A DNA stretch of 64,000 nt from Escherichia coli. Its GTDB lineage: Bacteria; Pseudomonadota; Gammaproteobacteria; Enterobacterales; Enterobacteriaceae. The stretch lies in NCBI RefSeq assembly GCF_003991155.1, contig NZ_CP031293.1; one strand, 5' to 3'. The notes beneath the pieces were generated by a model that had not been told where the DNA came from, made no database searches, and saw only the letters and a program-made list of their open reading frames with translations. Shown here in pieces: positions 1 through 22,665 of the stretch; within the stretch, counting starts at the first letter, position 1, and every line of letters starts with the position of its first letter. A program made the position numbers and the translations under genes.

Positions 1-976
1 CCATCGCCTGGAAGTCCAGCATCCCCTGAACATGTGCGACGCAGCTCTGTGCCGCTTCTTTTTGCAATCTGGCGTGTTGCTGTGGATCCTGCTGTGCAGC
101 GCGCCATTGTTCTACGCTCCAGCCCATCGGTAGGTAGCCATAAACCAGATCGTGAGCGGAAGTCTGGTCGGTCACCAGATCCGGCTTGATCGCCCCCTGA
201 CGTGCACGTTTCACCAGTTCAGGAACAATTTCCGCCGCATTGCCCAACAGCGCGATTGAAACAGCGTCTTTGCGCTCAGTATGGTATTTAATCAGCGCCA
301 GTGCATCATCGAGATCTTTCGCTTGTTTATCGACATAACGGGTACGCAGACGGAAGTCGATGCTACTTTGCTGGCACTCGATATTTAATGAACACGCCCC
401 CGCCAGAGTCGCCGCCAGCGGTTGTGCACCGCCCATACCACCTAGCCCTGCGGTCAGGATCCATTTTCCACTCAGCGAATTGTTGTAGTGCTGACGACCC
501 GCTTCAACAAAGGTTTCGAACGTTCCCTGCACAATGCCCTGACTACCGATGTAGATCCACGAGCCAGCGGTCATCTGGCCGTACATGAACAGACCTTTAC
601 GATCCAGTTCATTGAAATGATCCCAGTTGGCCCATTGCGGTACCAGGTTAGAGTTGGCAATCAATACGCGCGGCGCATCGGTATGCGTTTTAAACACGCC
701 TACGGGTTTACCGGACTGAACCAGCAGTGACTCATCAGCTTCCAGATTTTTCAGTGATTCAAGGATTTTGTCAAAACACTCCCAGTTACGTGCCGCACGA
801 CCAATACCACCATACACCACCAGATGCTGTGGATTTTCGGCAACGTCGGGATCAAGGTTGTTCTGCAACATCCGATAGGCAGCTTCGATCTGCCAGTTTT
901 TGCAGTGCAGCTGCGTACCGTGTGGCGCATGGATTACACGGCTGGTATCAATACGCGGGTCTGAAGGCTTACTCAT
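1..976 (-). CDS. hutU: Urocanate hydratase, N-terminal ~325 codons; 3' end lies beyond the window edge
   Basis: Minus-strand frame open to position 1; ATG at 974-976 preceded by GGAG; my translation [23 protein letters not shown]...[15 protein letters not shown]...[15 protein letters not shown]...[13 protein letters not shown] matches the urocanase family. Confidence 0.85.
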
Positions 977-1041
977 GAATCTTCTCCTGTTACTTGATAA
1001 AATTAAACGCTGTAATCGGTCAGAAAAAACGAACGAATGAA

Positions 1042-1060
1042 TATAGAAACGGTTTCTATA
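1042..1060. promoter_or_regulatory. Perfect 9-1-9 palindrome TATAGAAAC-G-GTTTCTATA about 70 bp upstream of the hutU start; candidate operator
   Basis: Palindrome read directly from the sequence; no match to a named operator consensus asserted. Confidence 0.3.
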
Positions 1061-1733
1061 ATTCCCGTTTATCATTTTGTATTATTAATTCATTTAGTGA
1101 ATATTGTTTGTCGTGGTATATTCACTATGAATATAAATTCAAAACCACCAACGCGTTGTATGCGAATTCAATATGCTTAATTTAACTTGTCGAAAAAGTG
1201 ATATTGTTGGCAAAATATTTTCTAATTTGAACATATGAATATGATGAGATTGCAAGATGTCAGTAATTTAATTATATGAGAAATGCGTTAATAACGACCA
1301 GATATTAGCGTAACAACAGGTGTTCCGACACCACACAGTGCGCATAACACAATGATATTTAAAATAAGATCTTCATTATTCGTCATAAAGACATGTTTTA
1401 TTATCATTAATAATCCATTTGTTTTCATCCCACTTTTGATAATTAAAAAACGGCAACAATGGATAGTTACCCGACGTAAAAACAGGCGTAAAAATAAATC
1501 TTAAAATATATCCACTGGAAATTATCATTTTTCATATTTTACAATCTGGCGTCGATAACTGACCCCTTTTATAACACCCCCGTTTGTTAATAGTCTTTTT
1601 TATCTTGTATTGATCGTCATTGCTGCATACACTACGCGCGTTTTCTTTCCCTTTTGCTGGCTGCTGACCGGAAAGACAAAATTACCCTCGCAATAAAGGG
1701 GGTTGTTTAACGTCTATATTTCAGGACAGCGTT

Positions 1734-3131
1734 ATGCATCATCTTTCAAGGCTTGATAAAGCCTTTCTGCGCAAAGGGATCCAACTTTCCCGCGCCAACA
1801 ATATTGTTTCATTATGTCGTCCATCAGGAGCCAGTGCCCACGTACTGCTGCCGGACGAACTGCCGCTGGAAGAAAAAGCAGTGACACAACTGCTTGATTT
1901 TGCAGAAGTGAAGATACCAGACCATCCAGGTTACGTACGCCAGACCTGTGCGACGCCAGATTTTCATCCCGGCAATGGCGTCCCCGTTGGCGCGGTAGTC
2001 GCCTCTACGCCGGATTTAGTCATTCCTGCGGCCATCGGCACCGATATTTCTTGTGGCATGCGGCTGCTGACGACCGGATTAACACTTGAGCAAGCCGAAG
2101 CGAATAAAGAAATAATCACTCAGCGGTTAACACAAGTGTTACTGCAAAATGAGCGCGATGTTCCGTTATCCGCACGAGCGTTCACCGCGCTTTTTGATGG
2201 CGGACCGGCAGATTGCATGTCGGCCTTGCCATCAGCAGGTCTCTGGACACGTACAAATATCCCCCGAATGACGCAAGAGATTGACCGCTGCATTGGGCTT
2301 AACGAGCATAACAGTCATTCGCGTTATGCCCCACCCGCCCTACTGGTAACGGACCGCCCATTACTCCGCGATCCTTGTCTTGGTACGCCGGGTTCAGGTA
2401 ATCATTTTATTGAACTTCAGGTGGTTGATAGCGTGGTTGATCGCCATGTTGCCTGGCAACAAGGGCTGAAAACGGGCGATATTGTGGTGATGATCCACAG
2501 TGGATCGCGAGATGTTGGCTTTTACGTCGGAAGACGCTGGATGGATCGCGCCCGTGCTGAATGGCCCACCGGACATAAACATCCACAAAGCGGGTTATAT
2601 GGCCTGGCAGGCGGACTGGCGGAGGAATATCTACAAGCGATGGGAATGGCGGCGCGTTACGCGTGGTTAAATCGCGTCACAATTGCCGAAATGGTGCGCG
2701 TATGTCTTGCCAATCTCTTTCATCAGGACAATTCGCATCTGGTGGTGGATGTGCCGCATAACATCATCCTTCGCGAGCATGAAATGAATATTCATCGCAA
2801 AGGTGCAACACCGGCACGCGCGGGCAATCTGGCGTTAATCCCCGGTTCAATGGGCGATTATTCGTGGCTTGCAGTCGGTTGCGGCAACCCGGAGTGGCTG
2901 TGGTCTTGCAGTCACGGAGCAGGACGCAGCCAGCGTCGGCAGGCCATGCACTCACGCGCGACTGAAGAGTCAACGTTGCCGTGGCAATGCGTCACATTGC
3001 GCGAAGAACGGCGTATTGAAGAAGCGCCAGCTGCTTATAAAGATATTGGTCCGGTTATCGAAGCCCAACAAGAGGCCGGATTAATTCATCCAGCGGTTAG
3101 ATTCCGACCGTGGTTAACGTTTAAGGCATAA
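1734..3131 (+). CDS. RtcB-family RNA ligase paralogue (465 aa)
   Basis: ORF translation carries RtcB-type motifs: VIPAAIGTDISCGMRL, GSGNHFIELQ, IHSGSRDVG, IPGSMGDYS, CSHGAGR, AYKDIGPV; start codon uncertain (weak RBS). Confidence 0.85.
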   Translation: MHHLSRLDKAFLRKGIQLSRANNIVSLCRPSGASAHVLLPDELPLEEKAVTQLLDFAEVKIPDHPGYVRQTCATPDFHPGNGVPVGAVVASTPDLVIPAAIGTDISCGMRLLTTGLTLEQAEANKEIITQRLTQVLLQNERDVPLSARAFTALFDGGPADCMSALPSAGLWTRTNIPRMTQEIDRCIGLNEHNSHSRYAPPALLVTDRPLLRDPCLGTPGSGNHFIELQVVDSVVDRHVAWQQGLKTGDIVVMIHSGSRDVGFYVGRRWMDRARAEWPTGHKHPQSGLYGLAGGLAEEYLQAMGMAARYAWLNRVTIAEMVRVCLANLFHQDNSHLVVDVPHNIILREHEMNIHRKGATPARAGNLALIPGSMGDYSWLAVGCGNPEWLWSCSHGAGRSQRRQAMHSRATEESTLPWQCVTLREERRIEEAPAAYKDIGPVIEAQQEAGLIHPAVRFRPWLTFKA

Positions 3132-3154
3132 AAAAAGGCCATCATATGATGGCC
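3130..3154 (-). terminator. Intrinsic terminator of the sdh-suc operon, shared by convergent genes (palindrome GGCCATCAT/ATGATGGCC plus U-run on minus strand)
   Basis: 18-bp perfect palindrome 3137-3154 flanked by a 7-A run 3130-3136, which is a U-run for the minus-strand transcript. Confidence 0.65.
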
Positions 3155-3229
3155 AACCATGTCGAAACCGACAGCCCTTCGCCATTCCTGTAGAGGGAAG
3201 CGGCGAGGGCTATTTCTTATTACAGATAT
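3130..3229 (-). ncRNA. sdhX: sucD 3'UTR-derived sRNA candidate (SdhX/RybD-like)
   Basis: About 100 nt between the sucD stop and the terminator; position corresponds to the known SdhX locus in E. coli; sequence identity not verified. Confidence 0.45.
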
Positions 3230-4099
3230 TTATTTCAGAACAGTTTTCAGTGCTTCACCGATATCCGCCAGGCTGCGAACGGTTTTCACGCCTGCGGCTT
3301 CCAGAGCAGCGAATTTCTCATCCGCAGTCCCTTTCCCACCGGCAATGATCGCACCTGCGTGACCCATACGTTTGCCTTTCGGCGCAGTCACACCAGCGAT
3401 GTAACCTACAACTGGCTTGGTAACGTGCTCTTTGATGTATGCAGCCGCTTCTTCTTCAGCGCTACCACCGATCTCACCGATCATCACGATCGCTTCGGTC
3501 TGCGGATCTTTTTCGAACATTTCGAGGATGTCGATAAAGTTAGAGCCAGGGATCGGGTCGCCGCCGATACCAACACAGGTCGACTGACCGAAACCGTAAT
3601 CCGTGGTCTGTTTAACCGCTTCATAGGTCAGTGTACCGGAACGGGAAACGATACCCACTTTACCCGGTTTGTGAATGTGACCAGGCTGGATACCGATTTT
3701 GCATTCACCCGGAGTGATAACGCCCGGGCAGTTCGGGCCGATCATGCGAACGCCCGCTTCATCCAGTTTCACCTTCACGGTCAGCATATCCAGCGTCGGG
3801 ATGCCTTCAGTGATGGTGATAATCAGTTTGATGCCTGCATCAATAGCTTCCAGAATGGAGTCTTTGCAGAACGGTGCTGGTACGTAGATAACAGAAGCGG
3901 TAGCGCCAGTAGCAGCAACAGCTTCACGCACGGTGTTGAACACCGGCAGGCCGAGGTGGGTGGTGCCGCCTTTACCTGGGGTTACGCCGCCAACCATTTT
4001 AGTGCCGTATGCAATAGCCTGTTCTGAGTGGAAAGTCCCCTGGCTACCGGTAAAGCCCTGGCAGATAACCTTGGTGTTTTTATCAATTAAAATGGACAT
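3230..4099 (-). CDS. sucD: Succinyl-CoA synthetase alpha subunit
   Basis: 289-aa ORF; translation [33 protein letters not shown]... Confidence 0.97.
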
Positions 4100-14859: not shown

Positions 14860-16170
14860 CTACACCAACAGCAAAGATATTGCCGGGATATAGGTAATAA
14901 CCAACAGCAGTAAAATAAGACTAACCAGTAGTGGCACCGCTTCTCGCATAAATTGCCCGACAGAAACCTGCACGGTATTACATACCAGCAGCATCACCGT
15001 TCCGACAGGCGGTGATAACGTTCCTAACGATAAGTTGAGGATCATGATGATGCCAAAATGCACCGGATCAATGCCAAAATGAGCCACCACAGGTTTAAGT
15101 AATGGAACTAATATCAGCAGGATGGCACTACCTTCAAGAAACATGCCAAGCACCAGCAGCAATAGATTGATAATCAATAAAAAGACGTATTTATTATCAG
15201 TCAGAGATGTCACAAACTCCGCAACCGTGATACCTGCCCGCTCAAGGGAAAATATCCAGCCCAGCGCGGCACTCGCCATAATGATTAACATGACCGATGC
15301 CGTCGAACGCGCCGTCTCTGAGAGTGCTGTAAATACATGGCTGATTTTCAGTTCGCGATAAATTACAAAACCAATAAACATCACCAATAATACTGCTACG
15401 GCTCCAGCTTCCGTTGGCGTAAAGATATTTGCCCGAATACCACCGATAACCGCAACAATTAAGAACAGTGCTGGCCAGGCCTGCACCAGCGCCACTGACA
15501 CTTCTTTCGGTTTTGGCCAGTGTTCGCTGGAAGGTTTTAAACCGCGCCGAATAGCTACCAGCCATACAGTGACAATCAACATGGCGGAACACAGCAGACC
15601 GGGCAGGATCCCGGCCATAAACATGGAGCCGATGGAGACATCCGCCACCAGTCCGTAAAGGATCAGTGCAATACCCGGTGGAATAATTGGTGTAATCAGC
15701 GAACCACTTGCCGTTATCGCCGCCGCAAAGCCACGGGAATAACCTTTCTGTTCCATTTCCGGCACCATCATGCGCGATAACATCGCAGCATCCGCCAGGT
15801 TTGAGGCGCTAACGCCGCCCATCATGGTACTGACCAGAATATTAGCCCCACCCAGACCACCGCGCATTCTGCCAATCAACACGTTGGCAATTTGCAAAAT
15901 ACGCGCGGCAATACCGGTATAGCTCATTAACGTGCCTAATAAGATAAAAAATGGAATAGCTAACAGCGAAGGGGTTTGCGTCGTGGCAATCAAACGCTGA
16001 ATTGCTACCATTAACGGCACATTTGAATAGCAAAGGAAGTAGGTCAGAATGCCGCAAAACATCGCCAGCCATACCGGCATATTGATAAATAAACAGATGA
16101 ACATAAGCGGAATGATCATTAGCCAGTTATCCAGCCAGCTTCCCGCCAGTAATTCACTCAATGCTGTCAT
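14860..16170 (-). CDS. TRAP transporter large permease (DctM family)
   Basis: 436-aa polytopic membrane ORF; start overlaps the dctQ stop by 1 nt. Confidence 0.85.
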   Translation of the reverse strand: MTALSELLAGSWLDNWLMIIPLMFICLFINMPVWLAMFCGILTYFLCYSNVPLMVAIQRLIATTQTPSLLAIPFFILLGTLMSYTGIAARILQIANVLIGRMRGGLGGANILVSTMMGGVSASNLADAAMLSRMMVPEMEQKGYSRGFAAAITASGSLITPIIPPGIALILYGLVADVSIGSMFMAGILPGLLCSAMLIVTVWLVAIRRGLKPSSEHWPKPKEVSVALVQAWPALFLIVAVIGGIRANIFTPTEAGAVAVLLVMFIGFVIYRELKISHVFTALSETARSTASVMLIIMASAALGWIFSLERAGITVAEFVTSLTDNKYVFLLIINLLLLVLGMFLEGSAILLILVPLLKPVVAHFGIDPVHFGIIMILNLSLGTLSPPVGTVMLLVCNTVQVSVGQFMREAVPLLVSLILLLLVITYIPAISLLLV

Positions 16171-16631
16171 TATTCACCTTCCTTGCGTGGCGTTTTCTTG
16201 ATCAGGTGTAAGGCAGTAAAACAGGCGATACCGATTGCACCAACCGTGACCGCAATATCGATCCAAAACCAGGATATTTTTAATATTTGCGTGGTTTTAA
16301 ATGCTGTTCCGGCAGCTAATTTCCATGCTGACCAAGCCATCACACTCAGTAAAACAATAGATATCAGAGAGACAAATAACGTTAAAACACGTTGCACGCG
16401 TGGTGTCAGTGCATCAGCTAAAAATGGAATCGACAAATGGGTATTATCCCGCTCGGCAACGACCGCACCAAACATGACTACCCAAATCATTAATAAACCG
16501 GAAACCTCTTCTGTCCACTGTAATGGCATATGAAAACAGTAACGCATTATTACCGCAGCAATGGTCATGATTACCAATATAAAGAGCGTTAATACCGCAG
16601 CAACTTCAATCATTTTCCCTAAAAGACGCAT
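16170..16631 (-). CDS. TRAP transporter small permease (DctQ family)
   Basis: About 153 aa with 4 predicted TM segments; start chosen at the ATG (MRLLGKMIEV...) with AGAGG RBS rather than the upstream GTG. Confidence 0.8.
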   Translation of the reverse strand: MRLLGKMIEVAAVLTLFILVIMTIAAVIMRYCFHMPLQWTEEVSGLLMIWVVMFGAVVAERDNTHLSIPFLADALTPRVQRVLTLFVSLISIVLLSVMAWSAWKLAAGTAFKTTQILKISWFWIDIAVTVGAIGIACFTALHLIKKTPRKEGE

Positions 16632-16650
16632 AAACACCTCTGCTCTTAAC

Positions 16651-16672
16651 GGTCGGTGCCGAAACACCGACC
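16651..16672 (-). other. Intercistronic hairpin between the TRAP binding-protein and permease genes (GGTCGGTG..CACCGACC)
   Basis: 8-bp perfect inverted repeat with 6-nt loop, read from the sequence. Confidence 0.4.
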
Positions 16673-16690
16673 AGTCCTTATGCCATGAAG

Positions 16691-17659
16691 TTATTTCAGC
16701 TGTTGCTGAATAGTGTCATACAAACCAGGGGTCCATTCCGGGAATTGTTGATAGACTTTTAAGGCTTTTTCTTTGAAAGGGGCGACGTCAGGATAGATAA
16801 TTTCCACGCCCTGCTCCTGCATGGTTTTCAACATTGTCGCATCCTGCTCAGTGGTAATTTTCTGGCTATATAAACCAGCTTCATACGCTGTCTGGTGAAT
16901 AATATCTAACTGCGCAGGTGTCAGGGTACTGAAAAACGCTTCACCACCCAACCATAATGATGTATTGGTCAGATAGTTCACCATTGACAGATATTTCGCC
17001 TGCTCATGCAGTTTTTGCCCATACAGAACAGAAACCGGGTTTTCCACACCATCGATCATCCCCTGCGTCAGCGCCGGATAAACGTCTCCCAGCGGCATTG
17101 GCGTTGGGGTTGCGCCCATTGCTTCAATGGCTTTAATCTGCATAACGTTATTCGGCACGCGGATCTTCATCCCTTTCAGGTCTTCAGGTGTACGAATCGG
17201 TTTTTTAGCAATGATCTGCCTGGTACCGTACAGATAGTTGCTCATGACAATATGCACACCTTTTTCCCGTAGTTTCTGTTCTTTTTGTTTAAACCAGTCA
17301 CTGGCATAAATCGCAAACAGTTTCTGCGGATCTTCGGTTAAATAAGGCCCAAACAATATTCCCAGGTCTGCATCGTAGTCAGTTAAAAATCCCACATCAC
17401 TGATGGTGATAATATTCATCCCCATCAACGCTTGTTCAGTAATATCTTGTTTAGAACCTAACTGTGAACTTGGGTAAAGTTCGAAAACAATATCTCCATT
17501 GCTTTTTTTCTTCACAAGTTCTGCCCAGTGCTTCACTACTGTATCCGCTGGCTCGCCGGGGTTACTTTCATAGGCGATTTTGATAGTTACCGGTGCGGCA
17601 TTCAGCATCGGACTAAATAAAGCGAAAAGAAATAAAAGTGGTGTCAGTAATTTTTTCAT
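16691..17659 (-). CDS. TRAP transporter periplasmic solute-binding protein (DctP family)
   Basis: 322 aa; signal peptide MKKLLTPLLFLFALFSPMLNA; conserved KIRVP region typical of carboxylate-binding DctP proteins. Confidence 0.85.
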   Translation of the reverse strand: MKKLLTPLLFLFALFSPMLNAAPVTIKIAYESNPGEPADTVVKHWAELVKKKSNGDIVFELYPSSQLGSKQDITEQALMGMNIITISDVGFLTDYDADLGILFGPYLTEDPQKLFAIYASDWFKQKEQKLREKGVHIVMSNYLYGTRQIIAKKPIRTPEDLKGMKIRVPNNVMQIKAIEAMGATPTPMPLGDVYPALTQGMIDGVENPVSVLYGQKLHEQAKYLSMVNYLTNTSLWLGGEAFFSTLTPAQLDIIHQTAYEAGLYSQKITTEQDATMLKTMQEQGVEIIYPDVAPFKEKALKVYQQFPEWTPGLYDTIQQQLK

Positions 17660-17686
17660 TATTATTACCTGTAAGAGCTTTATCGA

Positions 17687-18883
17687 TTAACGGGGATCTG
17701 CCCGACAGACTGCACTTTTGCTGTAATCAAATGCTTTATACGTTAAAACAAACTCCTGATGTTCCAGTCGTTCTGCGGCACAATATTGACCGTTGGCGAC
17801 ATGTTCAATCACCTGCATAATATCGTCTGCAATATCGTCGAGCGTTGCGCCTTCGCTAATTACACGACCGGCATTAACGTCCATATCGTCAGATAAATGC
17901 TCCCACGTCTGCGGGTTATTACACACTTTAATAATAGGAGCGATCACTGAACCAATAACTGAACCGCGACCTGTGGTAAATAACACCATATGACAGCCAG
18001 AGGCGATAAGTTCCAGTGCTTCTGAGGAATCGTTAATATTCGGATACCCAAAACGAGGTTCACCATCAGGCACCACGTCCATCAACCAAAGCCCAGGAAA
18101 GGGCGTTTGTTGCGTCGGCAAAATAACGCCAGCAATCAGCGCATCGCCCGACTTGGTATAAGCCCCAAGGGATTTTTCTTCCTGAGTGGTTAAGCCGCCT
18201 TCAGCATTACCATTAGAAAAACTCCCCAGCCCCATCAAACTGTAATAACGTTCGGCTTTTGCCATTGCCACTTCGATGGCATCACGTGCCTGCGAACTAG
18301 CCGCGCGCGACATCATATGCTGCTCACAACCAAGCAACTCACCGCTTTCTTCAAAAATACAGGTAGCCCCTTTCTCCAGCAGTTGGTCAAAGGCACGTCC
18401 TACTGCCGGGTTACCCGTGATACCACTGGTGCCATCGGAGCCACCGCAGATAGTACCAACCACCAGGTCGCTCCAGTTCAGGATACAACGCGGTGTATCC
18501 GCAAGCTGTTCCAGCATTTCAGCGACCAACTGCTTACCCAGAGTAATGGTGTTGGTCGTGCCTTTATTTTCCTGAATGACCAGCGTATGGCACGGTCGCC
18601 CACTTTCTCGTACTTCTTGCTCCAGCCGACGGCGATCAAAATTCTCGCACCCCAGCGAAATAATCAGTACACCACCTACGTTGCTATGAATCGCCAGATT
18701 TTTTACCAGACGATAGCCATAATCGCTGGGATAACAACCTGAAAAACCAAAATACTGCACGTCGTGACAAGGAAATCCTTCGGCAATCTTTTTAGCGACA
18801 TGGCTGGCACACTCCACCATAAAGATTACCTGCACAGTATTACGAATACCCGGTCGACCATTTTGCCGTACATAACCTTCCAT
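17687..18883 (-). CDS. UxaA-family (altronate/galactarate dehydratase-like) large subunit
   Basis: 398-aa ORF MEGYVRQNGRPGIRNTVQVIFMVECASHV... resembling the C-terminal catalytic part of UxaA/GarD; start overlaps the small-subunit stop (TAATG). Confidence 0.8.
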   Translation of the reverse strand: MEGYVRQNGRPGIRNTVQVIFMVECASHVAKKIAEGFPCHDVQYFGFSGCYPSDYGYRLVKNLAIHSNVGGVLIISLGCENFDRRRLEQEVRESGRPCHTLVIQENKGTTNTITLGKQLVAEMLEQLADTPRCILNWSDLVVGTICGGSDGTSGITGNPAVGRAFDQLLEKGATCIFEESGELLGCEQHMMSRAASSQARDAIEVAMAKAERYYSLMGLGSFSNGNAEGGLTTQEEKSLGAYTKSGDALIAGVILPTQQTPFPGLWLMDVVPDGEPRFGYPNINDSSEALELIASGCHMVLFTTGRGSVIGSVIAPIIKVCNNPQTWEHLSDDMDVNAGRVISEGATLDDIADDIMQVIEHVANGQYCAAERLEHQEFVLTYKAFDYSKSAVCRADPR

Positions 18884-19194
18884 TATGCTTTTTCCTCTGG
18901 CTGATAGCCGGCATCATCATGATGAAAAATGGCGATGGCATTGCTGGCAAGATTATGGGAATGCACATGTTCACCCATGGCAATATCGCGAGTGGCGTGT
19001 CCGATAATGGCGCCGTATTTCAGAATCGAATCACCATTGTTCAGCGCTTCGCAGGCCAGTTTGTGACCCAGGGTAACGGAACTACAGGCCACCATTTCCC
19101 CCTCATCCCACCAGACAATATCGCCACTGGCGATGTCATTCAGCGCGACTACACAGTTATCTTTGGCATGTAGCTTTAACGCACGTTTGCGCAT
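18883..19194 (-). CDS. SAF-domain small subunit of the split UxaA-type dehydratase
   Basis: About 103 aa from MRKRALKLHAKDNCVVALNDIASGDIV... with GGAGG RBS; corresponds to the N-terminal domain of single-chain UxaA. Confidence 0.7.
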   Translation of the reverse strand: MRKRALKLHAKDNCVVALNDIASGDIVWWDEGEMVACSSVTLGHKLACEALNNGDSILKYGAIIGHATRDIAMGEHVHSHNLASNAIAIFHHDDAGYQPEEKA

Positions 19195-19208
19195 AATTCC
19201 TCCGTACA

Positions 19209-19964
19209 TCAGAAGCCGATCAATGCGCCGCCATCCACCACCAGCACCTGACCACTGACAAATGCCGCTGCGTCTGAAGCCAGATAAACCGCAGCCCAAC
19301 CGATATCTTCCGGCTTGCCGAATTTTTTCATCGGTGTCCGCCCCAGGATTTTGTTACGGCGTTCGTCATCACCTTCAATGGCCTTACGCAACATTGGTGT
19401 ATCGATCCAGCCTGGCGCAATACCGTTGACGCGAATCCCATGAACGGCAAGCTCCGTGGTCATACCGCGAATCATGCCGAGATAGGCTGACTTCGCTGCG
19501 CTGTAGCCAGTAACCAGAGGCTGCCCAAGAAATGAGGTCATCGATGCAGTAAAAAGCACACAGCCTTGACCGCGTTGTTTCATATGCGGCACCAGCGCTT
19601 TGGTTAACGCAAATGCGCCGACTACGTGAACGTCGAGTACTGACTCAAAATCACTGACGCTCATCTCTTCAATCGGTTTTTTGCAGTGATTGCCTGCGTT
19701 ATTGACCAGGATATCGATAGCCCCGTGTTCGCTAATAAGCGCATCAACTTTTTCCTGCGCGGCTGCGGTATCCCCGACATCCATTTGTATCCAACTGGCC
19801 TGCGACCCCAATGTTCCGGCGGTCGCTTGCGCCAGCTCGCCGTTCAGGTCAGCAATAATGACCTTCGCCCCGCTGACTATCATGCATTTCGCCATTGCCA
19901 GCCCCAGCCCACTGGCTGCACCGGTGATCAACGCGGTTTTGTTATGTAAAGAAAAAGCATTCAT
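19209..19964 (-). CDS. Short-chain dehydrogenase/reductase (KduD/IdnO-like)
   Basis: 251 aa; TGAASGLG nucleotide-binding motif, IDILVNNAG, YSAAK catalytic motif; AAGGAG RBS. Confidence 0.85.
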   Translation of the reverse strand: MNAFSLHNKTALITGAASGLGLAMAKCMIVSGAKVIIADLNGELAQATAGTLGSQASWIQMDVGDTAAAQEKVDALISEHGAIDILVNNAGNHCKKPIEEMSVSDFESVLDVHVVGAFALTKALVPHMKQRGQGCVLFTASMTSFLGQPLVTGYSAAKSAYLGMIRGMTTELAVHGIRVNGIAPGWIDTPMLRKAIEGDDERRNKILGRTPMKKFGKPEDIGWAAVYLASDAAAFVSGQVLVVDGGALIGF

Positions 19965-19975
19965 GGTGTCGCTCC

Positions 19976-20989
19976 TTAAAGGTCAATGAGGATTTTGGTA
20001 TACGCGCCGGGATCACTTGCCCAGTCGCTAAAAGCATGATCAGCCTGTTCCAGCGGGTAGTGAGCACTCACCAGATTGCTGACCGGATAACGCCCGGACT
20101 CCATCAATGCCAGCACGGCACGAAAATCCGCCACGGTGGCATTGCGCGAACCACGGATATCCAGTTCTTTCATCAGGAACTGCGCACTCTGATAACTCAC
20201 TGGCTGTTTGGCGTAACCGACATAAACCACACGACCGCTAAACGCCACCAACCCTGTAGCCTGTTCAATGGTTTGTTGATTACCCACCGCTTCAATCACC
20301 ACTTCCGGGCCGCGACCGTCATTTAACAGCACCAGTTCTGCCGCCACGTCACATTGCTGCGAATTAAGAAAACGTTGCGCACCGCATTCCAGGGCAATGT
20401 TCTGCTTGCGATCATCAATATCGATAGCAATTACGCGCGCCCCCATGGCGGATGCCGCGGCGATAGCGCCAAGGCCAATTACCCCACAACCGATAACTGC
20501 GACCCATTCACCCACATTAATTTGCGCACGTCTGGCCGCATGTAGTCCCACGGCCAGCGGTTCTACCAGCGCTAACTCATCAACACTTAAGGCATTACAG
20601 ACAATGACTTTATGTGCAGGCATCGTCAGTTGTTGCGCCATCCCCCCCTGACGTTGCACACCAAGAGTTTGGTTGTTTTTACAGGCGTTAGGACGACCGC
20701 TCAGACAGGAGCTGCACACGCCACACTCAGTGCAAGGCAGAACGACCACCCGGTCACCTGGCTTGATCGCCCCTGCCATATCGCCAGTTGCCAGCACCGT
20801 GCCGCCAATTTCATGCCCCGGAATACAGGGATAATTAACCAGCGGATTCAGTCCCCGCCATGTATTGAGGTCAGAACCACACAGTCCGACACGCTCAACA
20901 TTGATTAGCACTTCTCCTTTACCGCAGACAGGTTCGGGGATATCAACAAATCGCGCCTGACTTCCCTGCTCAATGGTTAATGCCTTCAT
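19976..20989 (-). CDS. Zinc-dependent medium-chain dehydrogenase (IdnD / sorbitol dehydrogenase-like)
   Basis: 337 aa; GLCGSDL, GHEIGG, structural-zinc Cys cluster CTECGVCSSC, GCGVIGLG NAD fold; AAGGAGA RBS. Confidence 0.85.
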   Translation of the reverse strand: MKALTIEQGSQARFVDIPEPVCGKGEVLINVERVGLCGSDLNTWRGLNPLVNYPCIPGHEIGGTVLATGDMAGAIKPGDRVVVLPCTECGVCSSCLSGRPNACKNNQTLGVQRQGGMAQQLTMPAHKVIVCNALSVDELALVEPLAVGLHAARRAQINVGEWVAVIGCGVIGLGAIAAASAMGARVIAIDIDDRKQNIALECGAQRFLNSQQCDVAAELVLLNDGRGPEVVIEAVGNQQTIEQATGLVAFSGRVVYVGYAKQPVSYQSAQFLMKELDIRGSRNATVADFRAVLALMESGRYPVSNLVSAHYPLEQADHAFSDWASDPGAYTKILIDL

Positions 20990-21001
20990 TCATTGCTCTC
21001 C

Positions 21002-21688
21002 TTACATTACGCCGAAGGTTTCAAAGGCCTGTACCGTGCTCATGCCATCACTGATGGCTTTGCGCACTTCACTTTCAGTTGCCACTTTTTCCAGGGCCTG
21101 GGTAATAACTTCTTTCTCAACAACCTGGGGAATAATCAGTAATCCATCACGATCACCAAACACGATATCGCCCGGATTCACCCGCACGCCGTGAAATTCA
21201 ATAGGTACGCCGAAGTCGATGACCTTGCCGCGCGGACCTTGATCTTGTGCGTAAGTGCCATGACAAAAGGTGGGAAATTTCAATTCAAGAATTTCAGCAG
21301 AGTCACGGGCGTAACCATCGAGTACCGCACCTGCTGCTTTCAGATGCATGGCACGGGTAGACATCAACCCGCCCCACAAGGCATAGCGCAGAGAGCTGCC
21401 CGTAGTGATGTAAACATCGTTCTCTTTGAGGGCATCCAGCGCTTCAAACATGATGCCAAACGGTTTTTCGCCAATCGCCGTCTTACCCGACGTCGATTTG
21501 GTTTCGTAAACGTCCGACTCCAGCACCGGCATTGCCCGGCCTGCCACCACCGTATTCACATCCAGCGGCTTGATTGCCGGAGAAACAAACTGGTGCATAT
21601 AGCCCAGCGTGTCGAGAATATCGCCAACCACGGCGGTAAATAGCCGGGTTTTCATCAAAGCAAAAAGTTCGTTATCACTCTTCCACAT
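21002..21688 (-). CDS. RraA-like protein, putative class II 4-hydroxy-2-oxoacid aldolase
   Basis: About 228 aa from MWKSDNELFALMKTRLFTAVVGDILD... (RraA/MenG-like fold family); first gene of the operon. Confidence 0.75.
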   Translation of the reverse strand: MWKSDNELFALMKTRLFTAVVGDILDTLGYMHQFVSPAIKPLDVNTVVAGRAMPVLESDVYETKSTSGKTAIGEKPFGIMFEALDALKENDVYITTGSSLRYALWGGLMSTRAMHLKAAGAVLDGYARDSAEILELKFPTFCHGTYAQDQGPRGKVIDFGVPIEFHGVRVNPGDIVFGDRDGLLIIPQVVEKEVITQALEKVATESEVRKAISDGMSTVQAFETFGVM

Positions 21689-21694
21689 TATTTT

Positions 21695-21728
21695 CACCCT
21701 GTAAGCCTGTTTAACAGGTTTACAGGGT
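21695..21728. promoter_or_regulatory. Nested perfect palindrome (ACCCTGTAA-G-CCTGTT-T-AACAGG-T-TTACAGGGT) at the 5' end of the operon; candidate operator or RBS-occluding RNA hairpin
   Basis: Read from the sequence; lies 7 nt upstream of the RraA-like start codon and overlaps its Shine-Dalgarno region. Confidence 0.35.
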
Positions 21729-21951
21729 AAGGAGAAAAAGCGCACAATACTGCGAAGGGCGTCACGAAAAAGTTGTGTATTTACTATTTCTTCGCCACTC
21801 TTTCACACAATATGTCTTTGATTCGCACTGCATGGCGGGCGCACAGGCGCAGTAGTCTATTGATAATCAAGGGTTCTGGAGGAAAATATGAAGGATACAG
21901 TCCCGGTATTCTGGATTTTACCGACCAGGAAAAAGTACAACAGGAGTAAAA

Positions 21952-22665
21952 ATGAGTGAGAGTGCGTTATTGACCAGCGTAACGTTATCGTCACAGGTCA
22001 AAAATCATATTCTTAATCTGATCGCCGAACAAAAATTGACACCGGGGATGCCAGTTCCCAGTGAAATTCAGTTGATTCAGAAATTGGGCGTCAGTCGGGG
22101 TATTGTGCGTGAGGCCTATCGTTCACTTGCCGCCCTGGGGATTCTGGAAACGCACAGCGGTAAAGTGCCACGGATCAAAAAATTTGATGATGAAGTGCTG
22201 CGCGTGGTGTTTGGATTTGCCCTGGCGACCGAACAAGTAACAACAGAGCAAATTCTTCAAGTACGTCGCTGGCTAGAGTTGGGCGTTGTGGAAGCTGCTG
22301 CCCGTAATGGCGGAGAAGAAGATTTTGCTAACCTACGGGCTGAAATGGCAAAAATCCGCGAACAGTTCGATGATGTCGAAAGCTTTATCACCCATGACAT
22401 CCGCTTCCATCAGTTACTCGCCGTTGCCTCAAAAAATCCGCTTTTTATGATGTTATTGCAGGCATTACATCAGCAATTGCGGCAATCCATCCAGGAGGGA
22501 TTAAACGCCCAAAGCGATCAGAAAGAGTATGGCAATCACATCATCACACTACACCAGAAAATCTGCGACGCTGTGTGTGCCAGAGATGTCGAAACGGCGA
22601 CTCAAGCCATGAAATCACACTTCGACAGCCCGGTCAGTGCACTGATCAATAATTCCTCGCCATAA
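21952..22665 (+). CDS. GntR-family transcriptional regulator (FadR-type C-terminal domain)
   Basis: 237 aa; N-terminal winged HTH (EIQLIQKLGVSRGIVREAYRSL) followed by an all-helical domain; divergent from the catabolic operon. Confidence 0.85.
   Translation: MSESALLTSVTLSSQVKNHILNLIAEQKLTPGMPVPSEIQLIQKLGVSRGIVREAYRSLAALGILETHSGKVPRIKKFDDEVLRVVFGFALATEQVTTEQILQVRRWLELGVVEAAARNGGEEDFANLRAEMAKIREQFDDVESFITHDIRFHQLLAVASKNPLFMMLLQALHQQLRQSIQEGLNAQSDQKEYGNHIITLHQKICDAVCARDVETATQAMKSHFDSPVSALINNSSP

Follow-up and report, generated by a model that had tools for sequence, protein, structure and literature searches.

Is an RtcB-family gene situated beside the tricarboxylic acid (TCA) cycle genes of certain Escherichia coli strains the canonical RNA ligase gene of its host, a relic, or a further ligase with a role of its own? 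The question arises from a stretch of 64,000 nucleotides of E. coli DNA (contig NZ_CP031293.1 of assembly GCF_003991155.1; the whole stretch is referred to as the window), in which an open reading frame (ORF) at 1734..3131 on the + strand, here named RtcB3, runs towards sucD. An earlier sequence-only reading had described it as a stand-alone, diverged RtcB paralogue and proposed a role in RNA repair or stress response. The present analysis identifies it as the third RtcB paralogue of its host, which is considered with moderate confidence to be a catalytically competent ligase independent of RtcR and sigma-54, devoid of a PrfH partner and likely repairing RNAs of the translation apparatus.

The RtcB3 ORF starts with ATG and comprises 465 codons plus stop, preceded by an AGGA Shine-Dalgarno sequence (1723-1726) located 7 nt 5' of the start. 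It does not represent a chance ORF, since it matches the Pfam family RtcB (PF01139) over the full length (residues 63-464, model positions 7-425 of 426, E-value 8.6e-95). The start methionine and the N-terminal 40 residues are conserved among 20 aligned members of the clade described below. Across a gap of 98 nt follows sucD (3230..4099, - strand), and behind it sucC, sucB and sucA, in agreement with the previously noted convergence with the TCA-cycle operon. About twenty complete E. coli chromosomes, e.g. NZ_CP029747.1, match positions 1-3300 of the window with 100% identity; in that record the gene product is annotated in RefSeq as 'RtcB family protein' (WP_000546467.1).

All hallmark RtcB motifs claimed for the gene product are present in alignments with structures of the PDB, with clade members and with both other E. 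coli paralogues. A phmmer search of the PDB retrieved RtcB proteins only, with the catalytic motifs all aligned and E-values of 2.6e-42 (Thermus thermophilus TTHA1785), 1.9e-40 (Pyrococcus horikoshii RtcB) and 4.5e-34 (human RTCB). In P. horikoshii RtcB, the first manganese ion is coordinated by Cys98, His234 and His329 and the second by Asp95, Cys98 and His203, His404 forms the adduct with guanosine monophosphate (GMP), Asn202 locates at the 5'-OH, and Arg238 and Arg190 contact the 5'-OH strand (PMC8051266). The aligned counterparts in RtcB3 are C107/H255/H342 (Mn1), D104/C107/H224 (Mn2) and N223, R259 and R212 (5'-OH strand). The GMP-accepting histidine H394 (His404 in P. horikoshii, His337 in E. 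coli) is embedded in the motif SCSHGAGR, which is identical in E. coli RtcB1. Overall, the predicted active site consists of D76/H78, D104, C107, R212, N223, H224, H255, R259, H342, H394, Y435/K436 and K464; no substitution of its catalytic residues occurs among the 20 aligned clade members, where mean column identity is 72%, and the motifs also line up with RtcB1 and RtcB2. Loss of the metal-binding and guanylylation residues, named beforehand as evidence that would speak against an active ligase, is not observed.

An AlphaFold2 model of RtcB3 reached a predicted local distance difference test (pLDDT) value of 86 and a predicted template modelling (pTM) score of 0.89. Comparison of this model with the PDB by Foldseek yielded RtcB structures as the only significant matches (TM-scores 0.75-0.83; 4dwq with TM 0.81 and E-value 8e-30). 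The previously suspected N-terminal extension relative to RtcB1 exists, comprising about 23 residues modelled as a small helix and sheet element; internal insertions, however, account for most of the added length. Since the N-terminal segment and the insertions align with the 'long' archaeal and human RtcBs, the extension is not a novel appended domain. From the intact active site and fold, RtcB3 is probably a catalytically competent RtcB-family ligase.

The matching genome NZ_CP029747.1 additionally contains the rtcA-rtcB operon with divergent rtcR beside malT, about 2.9 Mb from RtcB3, as well as rtcB2-prfH beside dinB/yafP. Because the canonical rtc locus and rtcB2-prfH are both found elsewhere in this genome, RtcB3 is a third paralogue. 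BLASTP identities amount to 30.8% between RtcB3 and RtcB1 (408 amino acids), 28.8% between RtcB3 and RtcB2 (379 amino acids) and 27.7% between RtcB1 and RtcB2; the divergence from canonical RtcB and the difference in length (about 465 versus roughly 408 amino acids) had been correctly stated. RtcB3 scores below the cut-offs of both NCBIfam models concerned, with 205.6 against 407 for the RtcB equivalog NF007153 and 169 against 271.8 for TIGR03073 (release_rtcB). No match to RtcA, RtcR or PrfH was obtained by tblastn with E. coli queries in the whole window, as already assumed from the ORF list, and neither rtcA nor rtcR is present in the 20 kb beyond it in the matching genome. A canonical rtcB with its partners just outside the window is ruled out; the flanks are occupied by hut genes and rtcBA/rtcR resides at the distant locus.

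Homologues of RtcB3 with about 465 amino acids and 58-67% identity are numerous. A scan of one genome per species (100,044 species) for the clade-specific peptides [AT]CATPDFH and LIPGSMGD detected the clade in 288 genomes, mainly of Burkholderiales and Neisseriales; further hosts are Gilliamella, Xenorhabdus, Pectobacterium, Enterobacillus, Escherichia, Thiothrix, Xanthomonadaceae, Lysobacteraceae and a few others. In the phylogenetic placement, which had been proposed as a check, the core clade separated as a monophyletic group in 59 of 60 bootstraps of a neighbour-joining tree. Pairwise identity within this clade is at least 57%, against about 31-32% to RtcB1 and RtcB2. The next full-length relatives in a library clustered at 50% identity share 39-46% of residues with RtcB3, and beyond them similarity fades gradually into that of the general RtcB family (32-38%). 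No clade member was found on a phage, and the only members labelled as plasmid-borne locate on a mislabelled 4.9-Mb E. coli chromosome and on a 737-kb replicon of Eleftheria; carriage by mobile elements was therefore rejected.

The genomic neighbourhood was analyzed at 84 loci from 39 genera, with gene calling weighted by GC content at third codon positions (GC3) and all-against-all clustering of every ORF within 6 kb. Shadow ORFs and one generic cluster of LysR genes aside, no conserved partner gene emerged, which answers the search upstream of and beyond the window suggested earlier. The LysR cluster occurs at 23 of the 84 loci in mixed positions and on either strand. Neither RtcA nor PrfH is encoded at any of the loci, and no archease-like partner is among the conserved neighbours, although no search was aimed at archease. 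An upstream gene on the same strand is never closer than 70 nt to RtcB3, and the downstream neighbour is convergent at 61 of 81 clade loci. More distant relatives (41-46% identity) are likewise lone genes, found in three contexts with unrelated neighbours, and the Pfam-annotated neighbours in P. aeruginosa, Burkholderia and Chitinivorax are unrelated as well. RtcB3 is almost always monocistronic and without conserved partner. The claimed orphan status holds for E. coli and most taxa, but not for Gilliamella and Enterobacillus, where orthologues adjoin rtcR and rtcB1 (see below). Two other potential associations were rejected: RtcB3 matched no family of the PADLOC defence-system models at E-values up to 0.01, and matches to 'RtcR' in Comamonas and Delftia turned out to stem from AAA+ domains that belong to different sigma-54 activators, which in Comamonas are NtrC-type response regulators.

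The following features of the locus bear on regulation and delimitation of the gene:

1734..3131, + strand: coding sequence of RtcB3 (ORF call, Pfam, alignments, AlphaFold2/Foldseek)

1626..1733, + strand: proximal upstream region of RtcB3, 108 nt, with the AGGA ribosome-binding site at 1723-1726 (blastn versus strain 222)

977..1625, no strand assigned: AT-rich intergenic DNA between the hutU start (976, - strand) and the proximal region (composition profile)

3132..3229, no strand assigned: convergent-terminator spacer between RtcB3 and sucD (terminator scan, RNA fold)

When the window was compared by blastn with the hut-lacking strain 222, the match began at 1626 with 95.9% identity, leaving the 108 nt at 1626-1733 as the only upstream sequence common to hut-containing and hut-lacking contexts. 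Since only these 108 nt travel with RtcB3, any dedicated promoter should reside within them, and we infer that RtcB3 has its own promoter there; no convincing sigma-70 match was found within 1626..1733. The remaining 650 nt (977..1625) have a GC content of 30-39%, are specific to the hut-containing arrangement and are absent from strain 222. Such composition would fit horizontally acquired DNA, maybe silenced by H-NS. A scan for the sigma-54 consensus TGGCAC-N5-TTGCA, scored out of 11, revealed no site of at least 7 in window positions 977-1733 or upstream of Gilliamella RtcB3, and at 83 of the 84 clade loci no site of at least 9 is present within 400 nt. The controls scored 11 (rtcB1 promoter of the same E. 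coli genome) and 10 (rtcB1 promoters of Gilliamella). A noncoding RNA partner comparable to the Y RNAs of Salmonella rsr-rtcBA was rejected, as no Rfam family matched window positions 1-3400 at E-values up to 1.

Among characterized members of the family, E. coli RtcB1 has in common with RtcB3 the Pfam family, the fold, the motifs DIxCG, GxGNHF, HSGSR, HN, SCSHGAGR and AYK and the C-terminal lysine, and presumably also the three-step ligation of 3'-phosphate and 5'-OH ends depending on Mn2+ and guanosine triphosphate (GTP); it differs by its shorter sequence (RtcB3 has a longer N-terminus and internal insertions) and by the adjacent rtcA and rtcR and the sigma-54 promoter, all three of which RtcB3 lacks. 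RtcB2 coexists with RtcB1 and shares with RtcB3 an insertion after GNHF that is absent from RtcB1, but is even shorter and is followed by prfH, which accompanies RtcB3 neither in the window nor at any clade locus. RtcB2 is specific for 16S ribosomal RNA (rRNA) cleaved in the decoding centre, and the substrates of RtcB1 and RtcB2 are mutually exclusive (Tian et al. 2022, PMC9304027). The 'long' archaeal and eukaryal enzymes (P. horikoshii PH1602, T. thermophilus TTHA1785 and human RTCB; 481-505 amino acids) are similar in length to RtcB3 and its best PDB matches (E-values about 1e-40 to 1e-42, TM about 0.8), yet in structural alignments identity is only 22-27%. E. coli is not known to possess transfer RNA (tRNA) introns or a splicing endonuclease, and RtcB3 can therefore have no role in tRNA splicing. 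Myxococcus xanthus RtcB1 to RtcB3 provide a precedent for several paralogues with differing end-joining and capping activities in one bacterium; a 2015 study by Maughan and Shuman reportedly, judging by its title, deals with 5'-phosphate capping by the RtcB3 of this organism. The shared name is a coincidence of numbering and no evidence for orthology.

In E. coli, RtcB3 was found in 324 of 5,426 complete genomes, 289 times at a coverage of at least 80%, i.e. in about 5% of strains. It is always single-copy, chromosomal and located at the same site, with 93.6-100% nucleotide identity. Natural carriers include strains 2016C-3878 and MS6198. Several arrangements occur. In the first (144 genomes), the order is hut cluster, RtcB3 and sucD as in the window. 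In the second, which lacks hut, LysR is divergent from RtcB3 across an intergenic gap of about 590 nt, and RtcB3 is followed by mngB, mngA, mngR and sucD; in strains 222 and A34, mngR abuts sucD, consistent with the earlier remark on the position of mngR downstream of sucD in strain K-12. In the third, fragments only of RtcB3 are left between LysR and sucD, namely coding sequence fragments of 57 nt and 42 nt in LS45 (L092, 3942-4042) and a 3'-terminal match of 33 nt in CM2 (L093, 4001-4033). As these fragments are deletion scars, RtcB3 was lost from such strains rather than never acquired. In isolate AF3 (L100, 3262-3597), a truncated RtcB3 lies beside an inserted gene for a TPR protein. Among six Escherichia alleles, the ratio of nonsynonymous to synonymous substitution rates (dN/dS) is 0.12-0.27, with dS up to 0.27 and dN at most 0.04. 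Overall, RtcB3 occupies the sucD-distal border of a metabolic island that contains the methylaspartate cluster, either alone or together with hut, and the data fit an old Escherichia accessory gene under moderate purifying selection and with repeated loss.

Enzymatic activity, cofactors, RNA target and regulation of RtcB3 can be proposed as follows. By homology with the E. coli and P. horikoshii enzymes, two Mn2+ ions would be held by D104/C107/H224 and C107/H255/H342, and GTP would guanylylate H394. The GMP moiety would then be transferred from H394 to the 3'-phosphate of the RNA, with prior hydrolysis of a 2',3'-cyclic phosphate if necessary, and attack by the 5'-OH end, positioned by N223, R259 and R212, would reseal the break. 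Unlike RtcB1, the enzyme would be produced outside the RtcR/sigma-54 regulon and, unlike RtcB2, without PrfH, from a monocistronic gene that has a short upstream region of its own. As a best guess at its physiology, RtcB3 may repair breaks that endoribonuclease toxins or stress cause in tRNA or rRNA, with basal or differently regulated expression.

Several observations weigh against this proposal. RtcB paralogues can differ in chemistry, and the intact active site is consequently no proof of RNA sealing; residues 393-410 around the nucleophile H394 furthermore represent the low-confidence part of the AlphaFold2 model. Gene context gives no pointer to an RNA target, and sigma-70-like hexamers in the 757-nt spacer upstream of the gene occur at chance frequency (5 found versus 4.3 expected). 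The above dN/dS range appears looser than would be expected for E. coli core genes, and deletions and truncations in some strains imply that the function is dispensable.

A more far-reaching version of the proposal appears unlikely, though less so than any of the other alternatives: the clade may form a functionally distinct, RtcR-independent type of ligase with its own substrate (e.g. a particular tRNA or rRNA cut introduced by contact-dependent, colicin-type or type VI secretion system RNase toxins) or its own chemistry (such as capping). Toxins of these types are common in the genera carrying the clade, i.e. Burkholderia, Xenorhabdus, Pectobacterium, Gilliamella and Escherichia. If this version is true, E. 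coli strains carrying RtcB3 would gain a third, non-redundant layer of immunity against RNA damage.

Four further explanations are ranked below the role as a translation-related RNA repair ligase. That RtcB3 chiefly modifies ends, attaching DNA 3'pp5'G or 5'-phosphate GppN caps instead of sealing RNA, is improbable. Precedents are given in reviews and reference lists, with E. coli RtcB capping DNA 3'-phosphate ends and M. xanthus paralogues differing in ligation and capping, and the identity of about 30% to both characterized E. coli enzymes leaves room for altered specificity. One predicted contact to the 5'-OH strand, Gln194 in P. horikoshii RtcB, is moreover replaced by Cys215 in RtcB3. The residues N223, R259 and R212, which would serve the same strand, are however invariant in the clade and argue for a retained sealing step, and DNA-repair genes do not recur near RtcB3 at the 84 loci.

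Still less probable is a decaying relic in E. coli, which would persist without current function as a passive element at the edge of the accessory island. This would agree with the absence of RtcB3 from about 95% of complete E. coli genomes, the remnants in LS45 and CM2 and the truncated copy in AF3, dN/dS values up to 0.27 and AT-rich upstream DNA without a clear promoter. Decay is contradicted by the 465-codon frame remaining intact in 289 genomes that span 93.6-100% nucleotide identity, by dN staying at or below 0.04 while dS reaches 0.27, and by catalytic residues that are invariant in a clade spanning at least 39 genera.

To be doubted to the same degree as the relic is a function as auxiliary of the Rtc stress system, either as second ligase or as modulator of RtcR, which would have become unlinked in E. 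coli. Of the 12 Gilliamella loci, 7 have genuine rtcR and rtcB1 genes within about 6 kb of RtcB3, as does Enterobacillus; the linked rtcB1 products are about 70% identical to E. coli RtcB1, and Gilliamella RtcR exceeds the NCBIfam equivalog cut-off (769.6 versus 650). At three of the Gilliamella loci, RtcB3 is preceded on its own strand by rtcR, the end of which lies about 140 nt away, and in one metagenome-assembled genome (MAG) of Comamonadaceae an rtcB1-like gene precedes RtcB3 by 321 nt. Binding of RtcA and RtcB to the CARF domain of RtcR, described in PMC9650030, would offer a basis for such a function. This linkage is nevertheless confined to 3 of 39 genera, no sigma-54 promoter precedes RtcB3 even in Gilliamella (with rtcB1 as control at 10/11), and about 2.9 Mb separate the two loci in E. 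coli.

The least probable explanation ties RtcB3 to its metabolic neighbours, under LysR control or co-regulated with hut/methylaspartate genes, e.g. for processing of a pathway-linked RNA: LysR is divergent from RtcB3 in hut-lacking strains, a divergent LysR is also found within 1.7 kb upstream of the gene in Chitinimonas, Acidovorax, a Burkholderiales MAG and Burkholderia (where an NmrA-like gene intervenes), and hutU is divergent in the window strain, but hut is missing in about half of the carriers (the hut arrangement being present in 144 of 289), the two contexts have only 108 upstream nt in common, LysR genes are so abundant in these taxa that 23 of 84 loci is roughly what chance would give, and hut/methylaspartate genes do not recur beside the clade in other genera.

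The interpretation as a third, translation-related repair ligase does not concern an unnoticed gene, as RefSeq had already labelled it and Tian et al. 2022 (PMC9304027) had mentioned, without studying it, that about 60 strains of E. coli have a third RtcB. In the literature, no paper characterizing RtcB3 and no mention of its WP accessions was found. A P. aeruginosa rtcB study was set aside, since it concerns PA4583 (cloned fragment of 1,260 bp), which appears to be of the canonical type and not of the RtcB3 clade. RtcB3 is an uncharacterized addition to a well-known family, without anomalous anatomy and not surprising in kind, and none of the findings points to new chemistry or to a system of a new type. 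Its relevance arises from the still debated physiological substrates of bacterial RtcBs: because those of RtcB1 and RtcB2 are mutually exclusive, RtcB3 lends itself directly to testing how a single fold divides up substrate specificity. As a conserved, separable clade with intact active site and not under RtcR control, it provides a clean experimental handle, and natural strains with and without RtcB3 differ by small deletions, allowing near-isogenic comparisons. The practical stakes are modest; in lineages carrying it, RtcB3 could influence how well ribotoxins or ribosome-targeting antibiotics are tolerated.

Downstream of RtcB3, the 98-nt spacer to sucD (3132-3229) has a predicted folding energy of -42.5 kcal/mol (z = -5.5 versus shuffled sequences). 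The terminator scan identifies as sucD terminator a hairpin at 3137-3154 that precedes a T-run on the - strand. From sequence and fold, a second hairpin (about 3174-3210), with TATTTCTTATT after it on the + strand, is a plausible candidate for the RtcB3 terminator. The hairpins of this spacer could terminate both transcripts, each adjoining the stop codon of the opposing gene.

Genus-specific neighbours were observed at several loci. In Gilliamella (L046, 3153-9850; similarly L051 and L054), rtcB1 is followed by genes for 526, 255 and 353 amino acids without NCBIfam match, which may be RNA-repair accessories; no rtcA was seen there, and the divergent rtcR is followed by RtcB3. In Chitinivorax sp. 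B (L008, 8477-9714), a Tpt1/KptA gene is located 73 nt downstream of RtcB3 and succeeded by a GNAT acetyltransferase gene. Among the 84 loci, Tpt1/KptA stands beside RtcB3 only in Chitinivorax, where, unusually, an RtcB ligase is thus paired with an enzyme from the alternative (2'-phosphate) ligation pathway. At nine Burkholderia loci (L025, 7887-9868, and eight others), an NmrA/epimerase-like gene lies about 132 nt before RtcB3; it is divergent from LysR at eight of them, the contig of the ninth being too short to show this. The NmrA-like gene and RtcB3 could form a genus-specific two-gene unit.

On the other side of RtcB3, the left end of the window runs into hutU (1-976, - strand), which is divergent from RtcB3. 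Behind it follow the full histidine-utilisation (hut) cluster, a LysR-type regulator and the methylaspartate/mesaconate cluster. The part of the hut cluster just outside the window (L001, 13235-20976) encodes a cytosine-permease-like transporter, HutD, HutI, HutG and a HAL/PAL ammonia-lyase; the cluster is presumably absent from E. coli K-12. Beyond gltA, another metabolic cluster extends over window positions 14860-21745 (- strand) and 21952-22665 (+ strand), coding for a tripartite ATP-independent periplasmic (TRAP) transporter, UxaA-family hydrolases, a short-chain dehydrogenase/reductase (SDR), a zinc alcohol dehydrogenase, an RraA-family protein and a GntR-type regulator. This cluster, which is presumably missing from that position in K-12, constitutes, next to the TCA-cycle genes, a second metabolic insertion that varies between strains.

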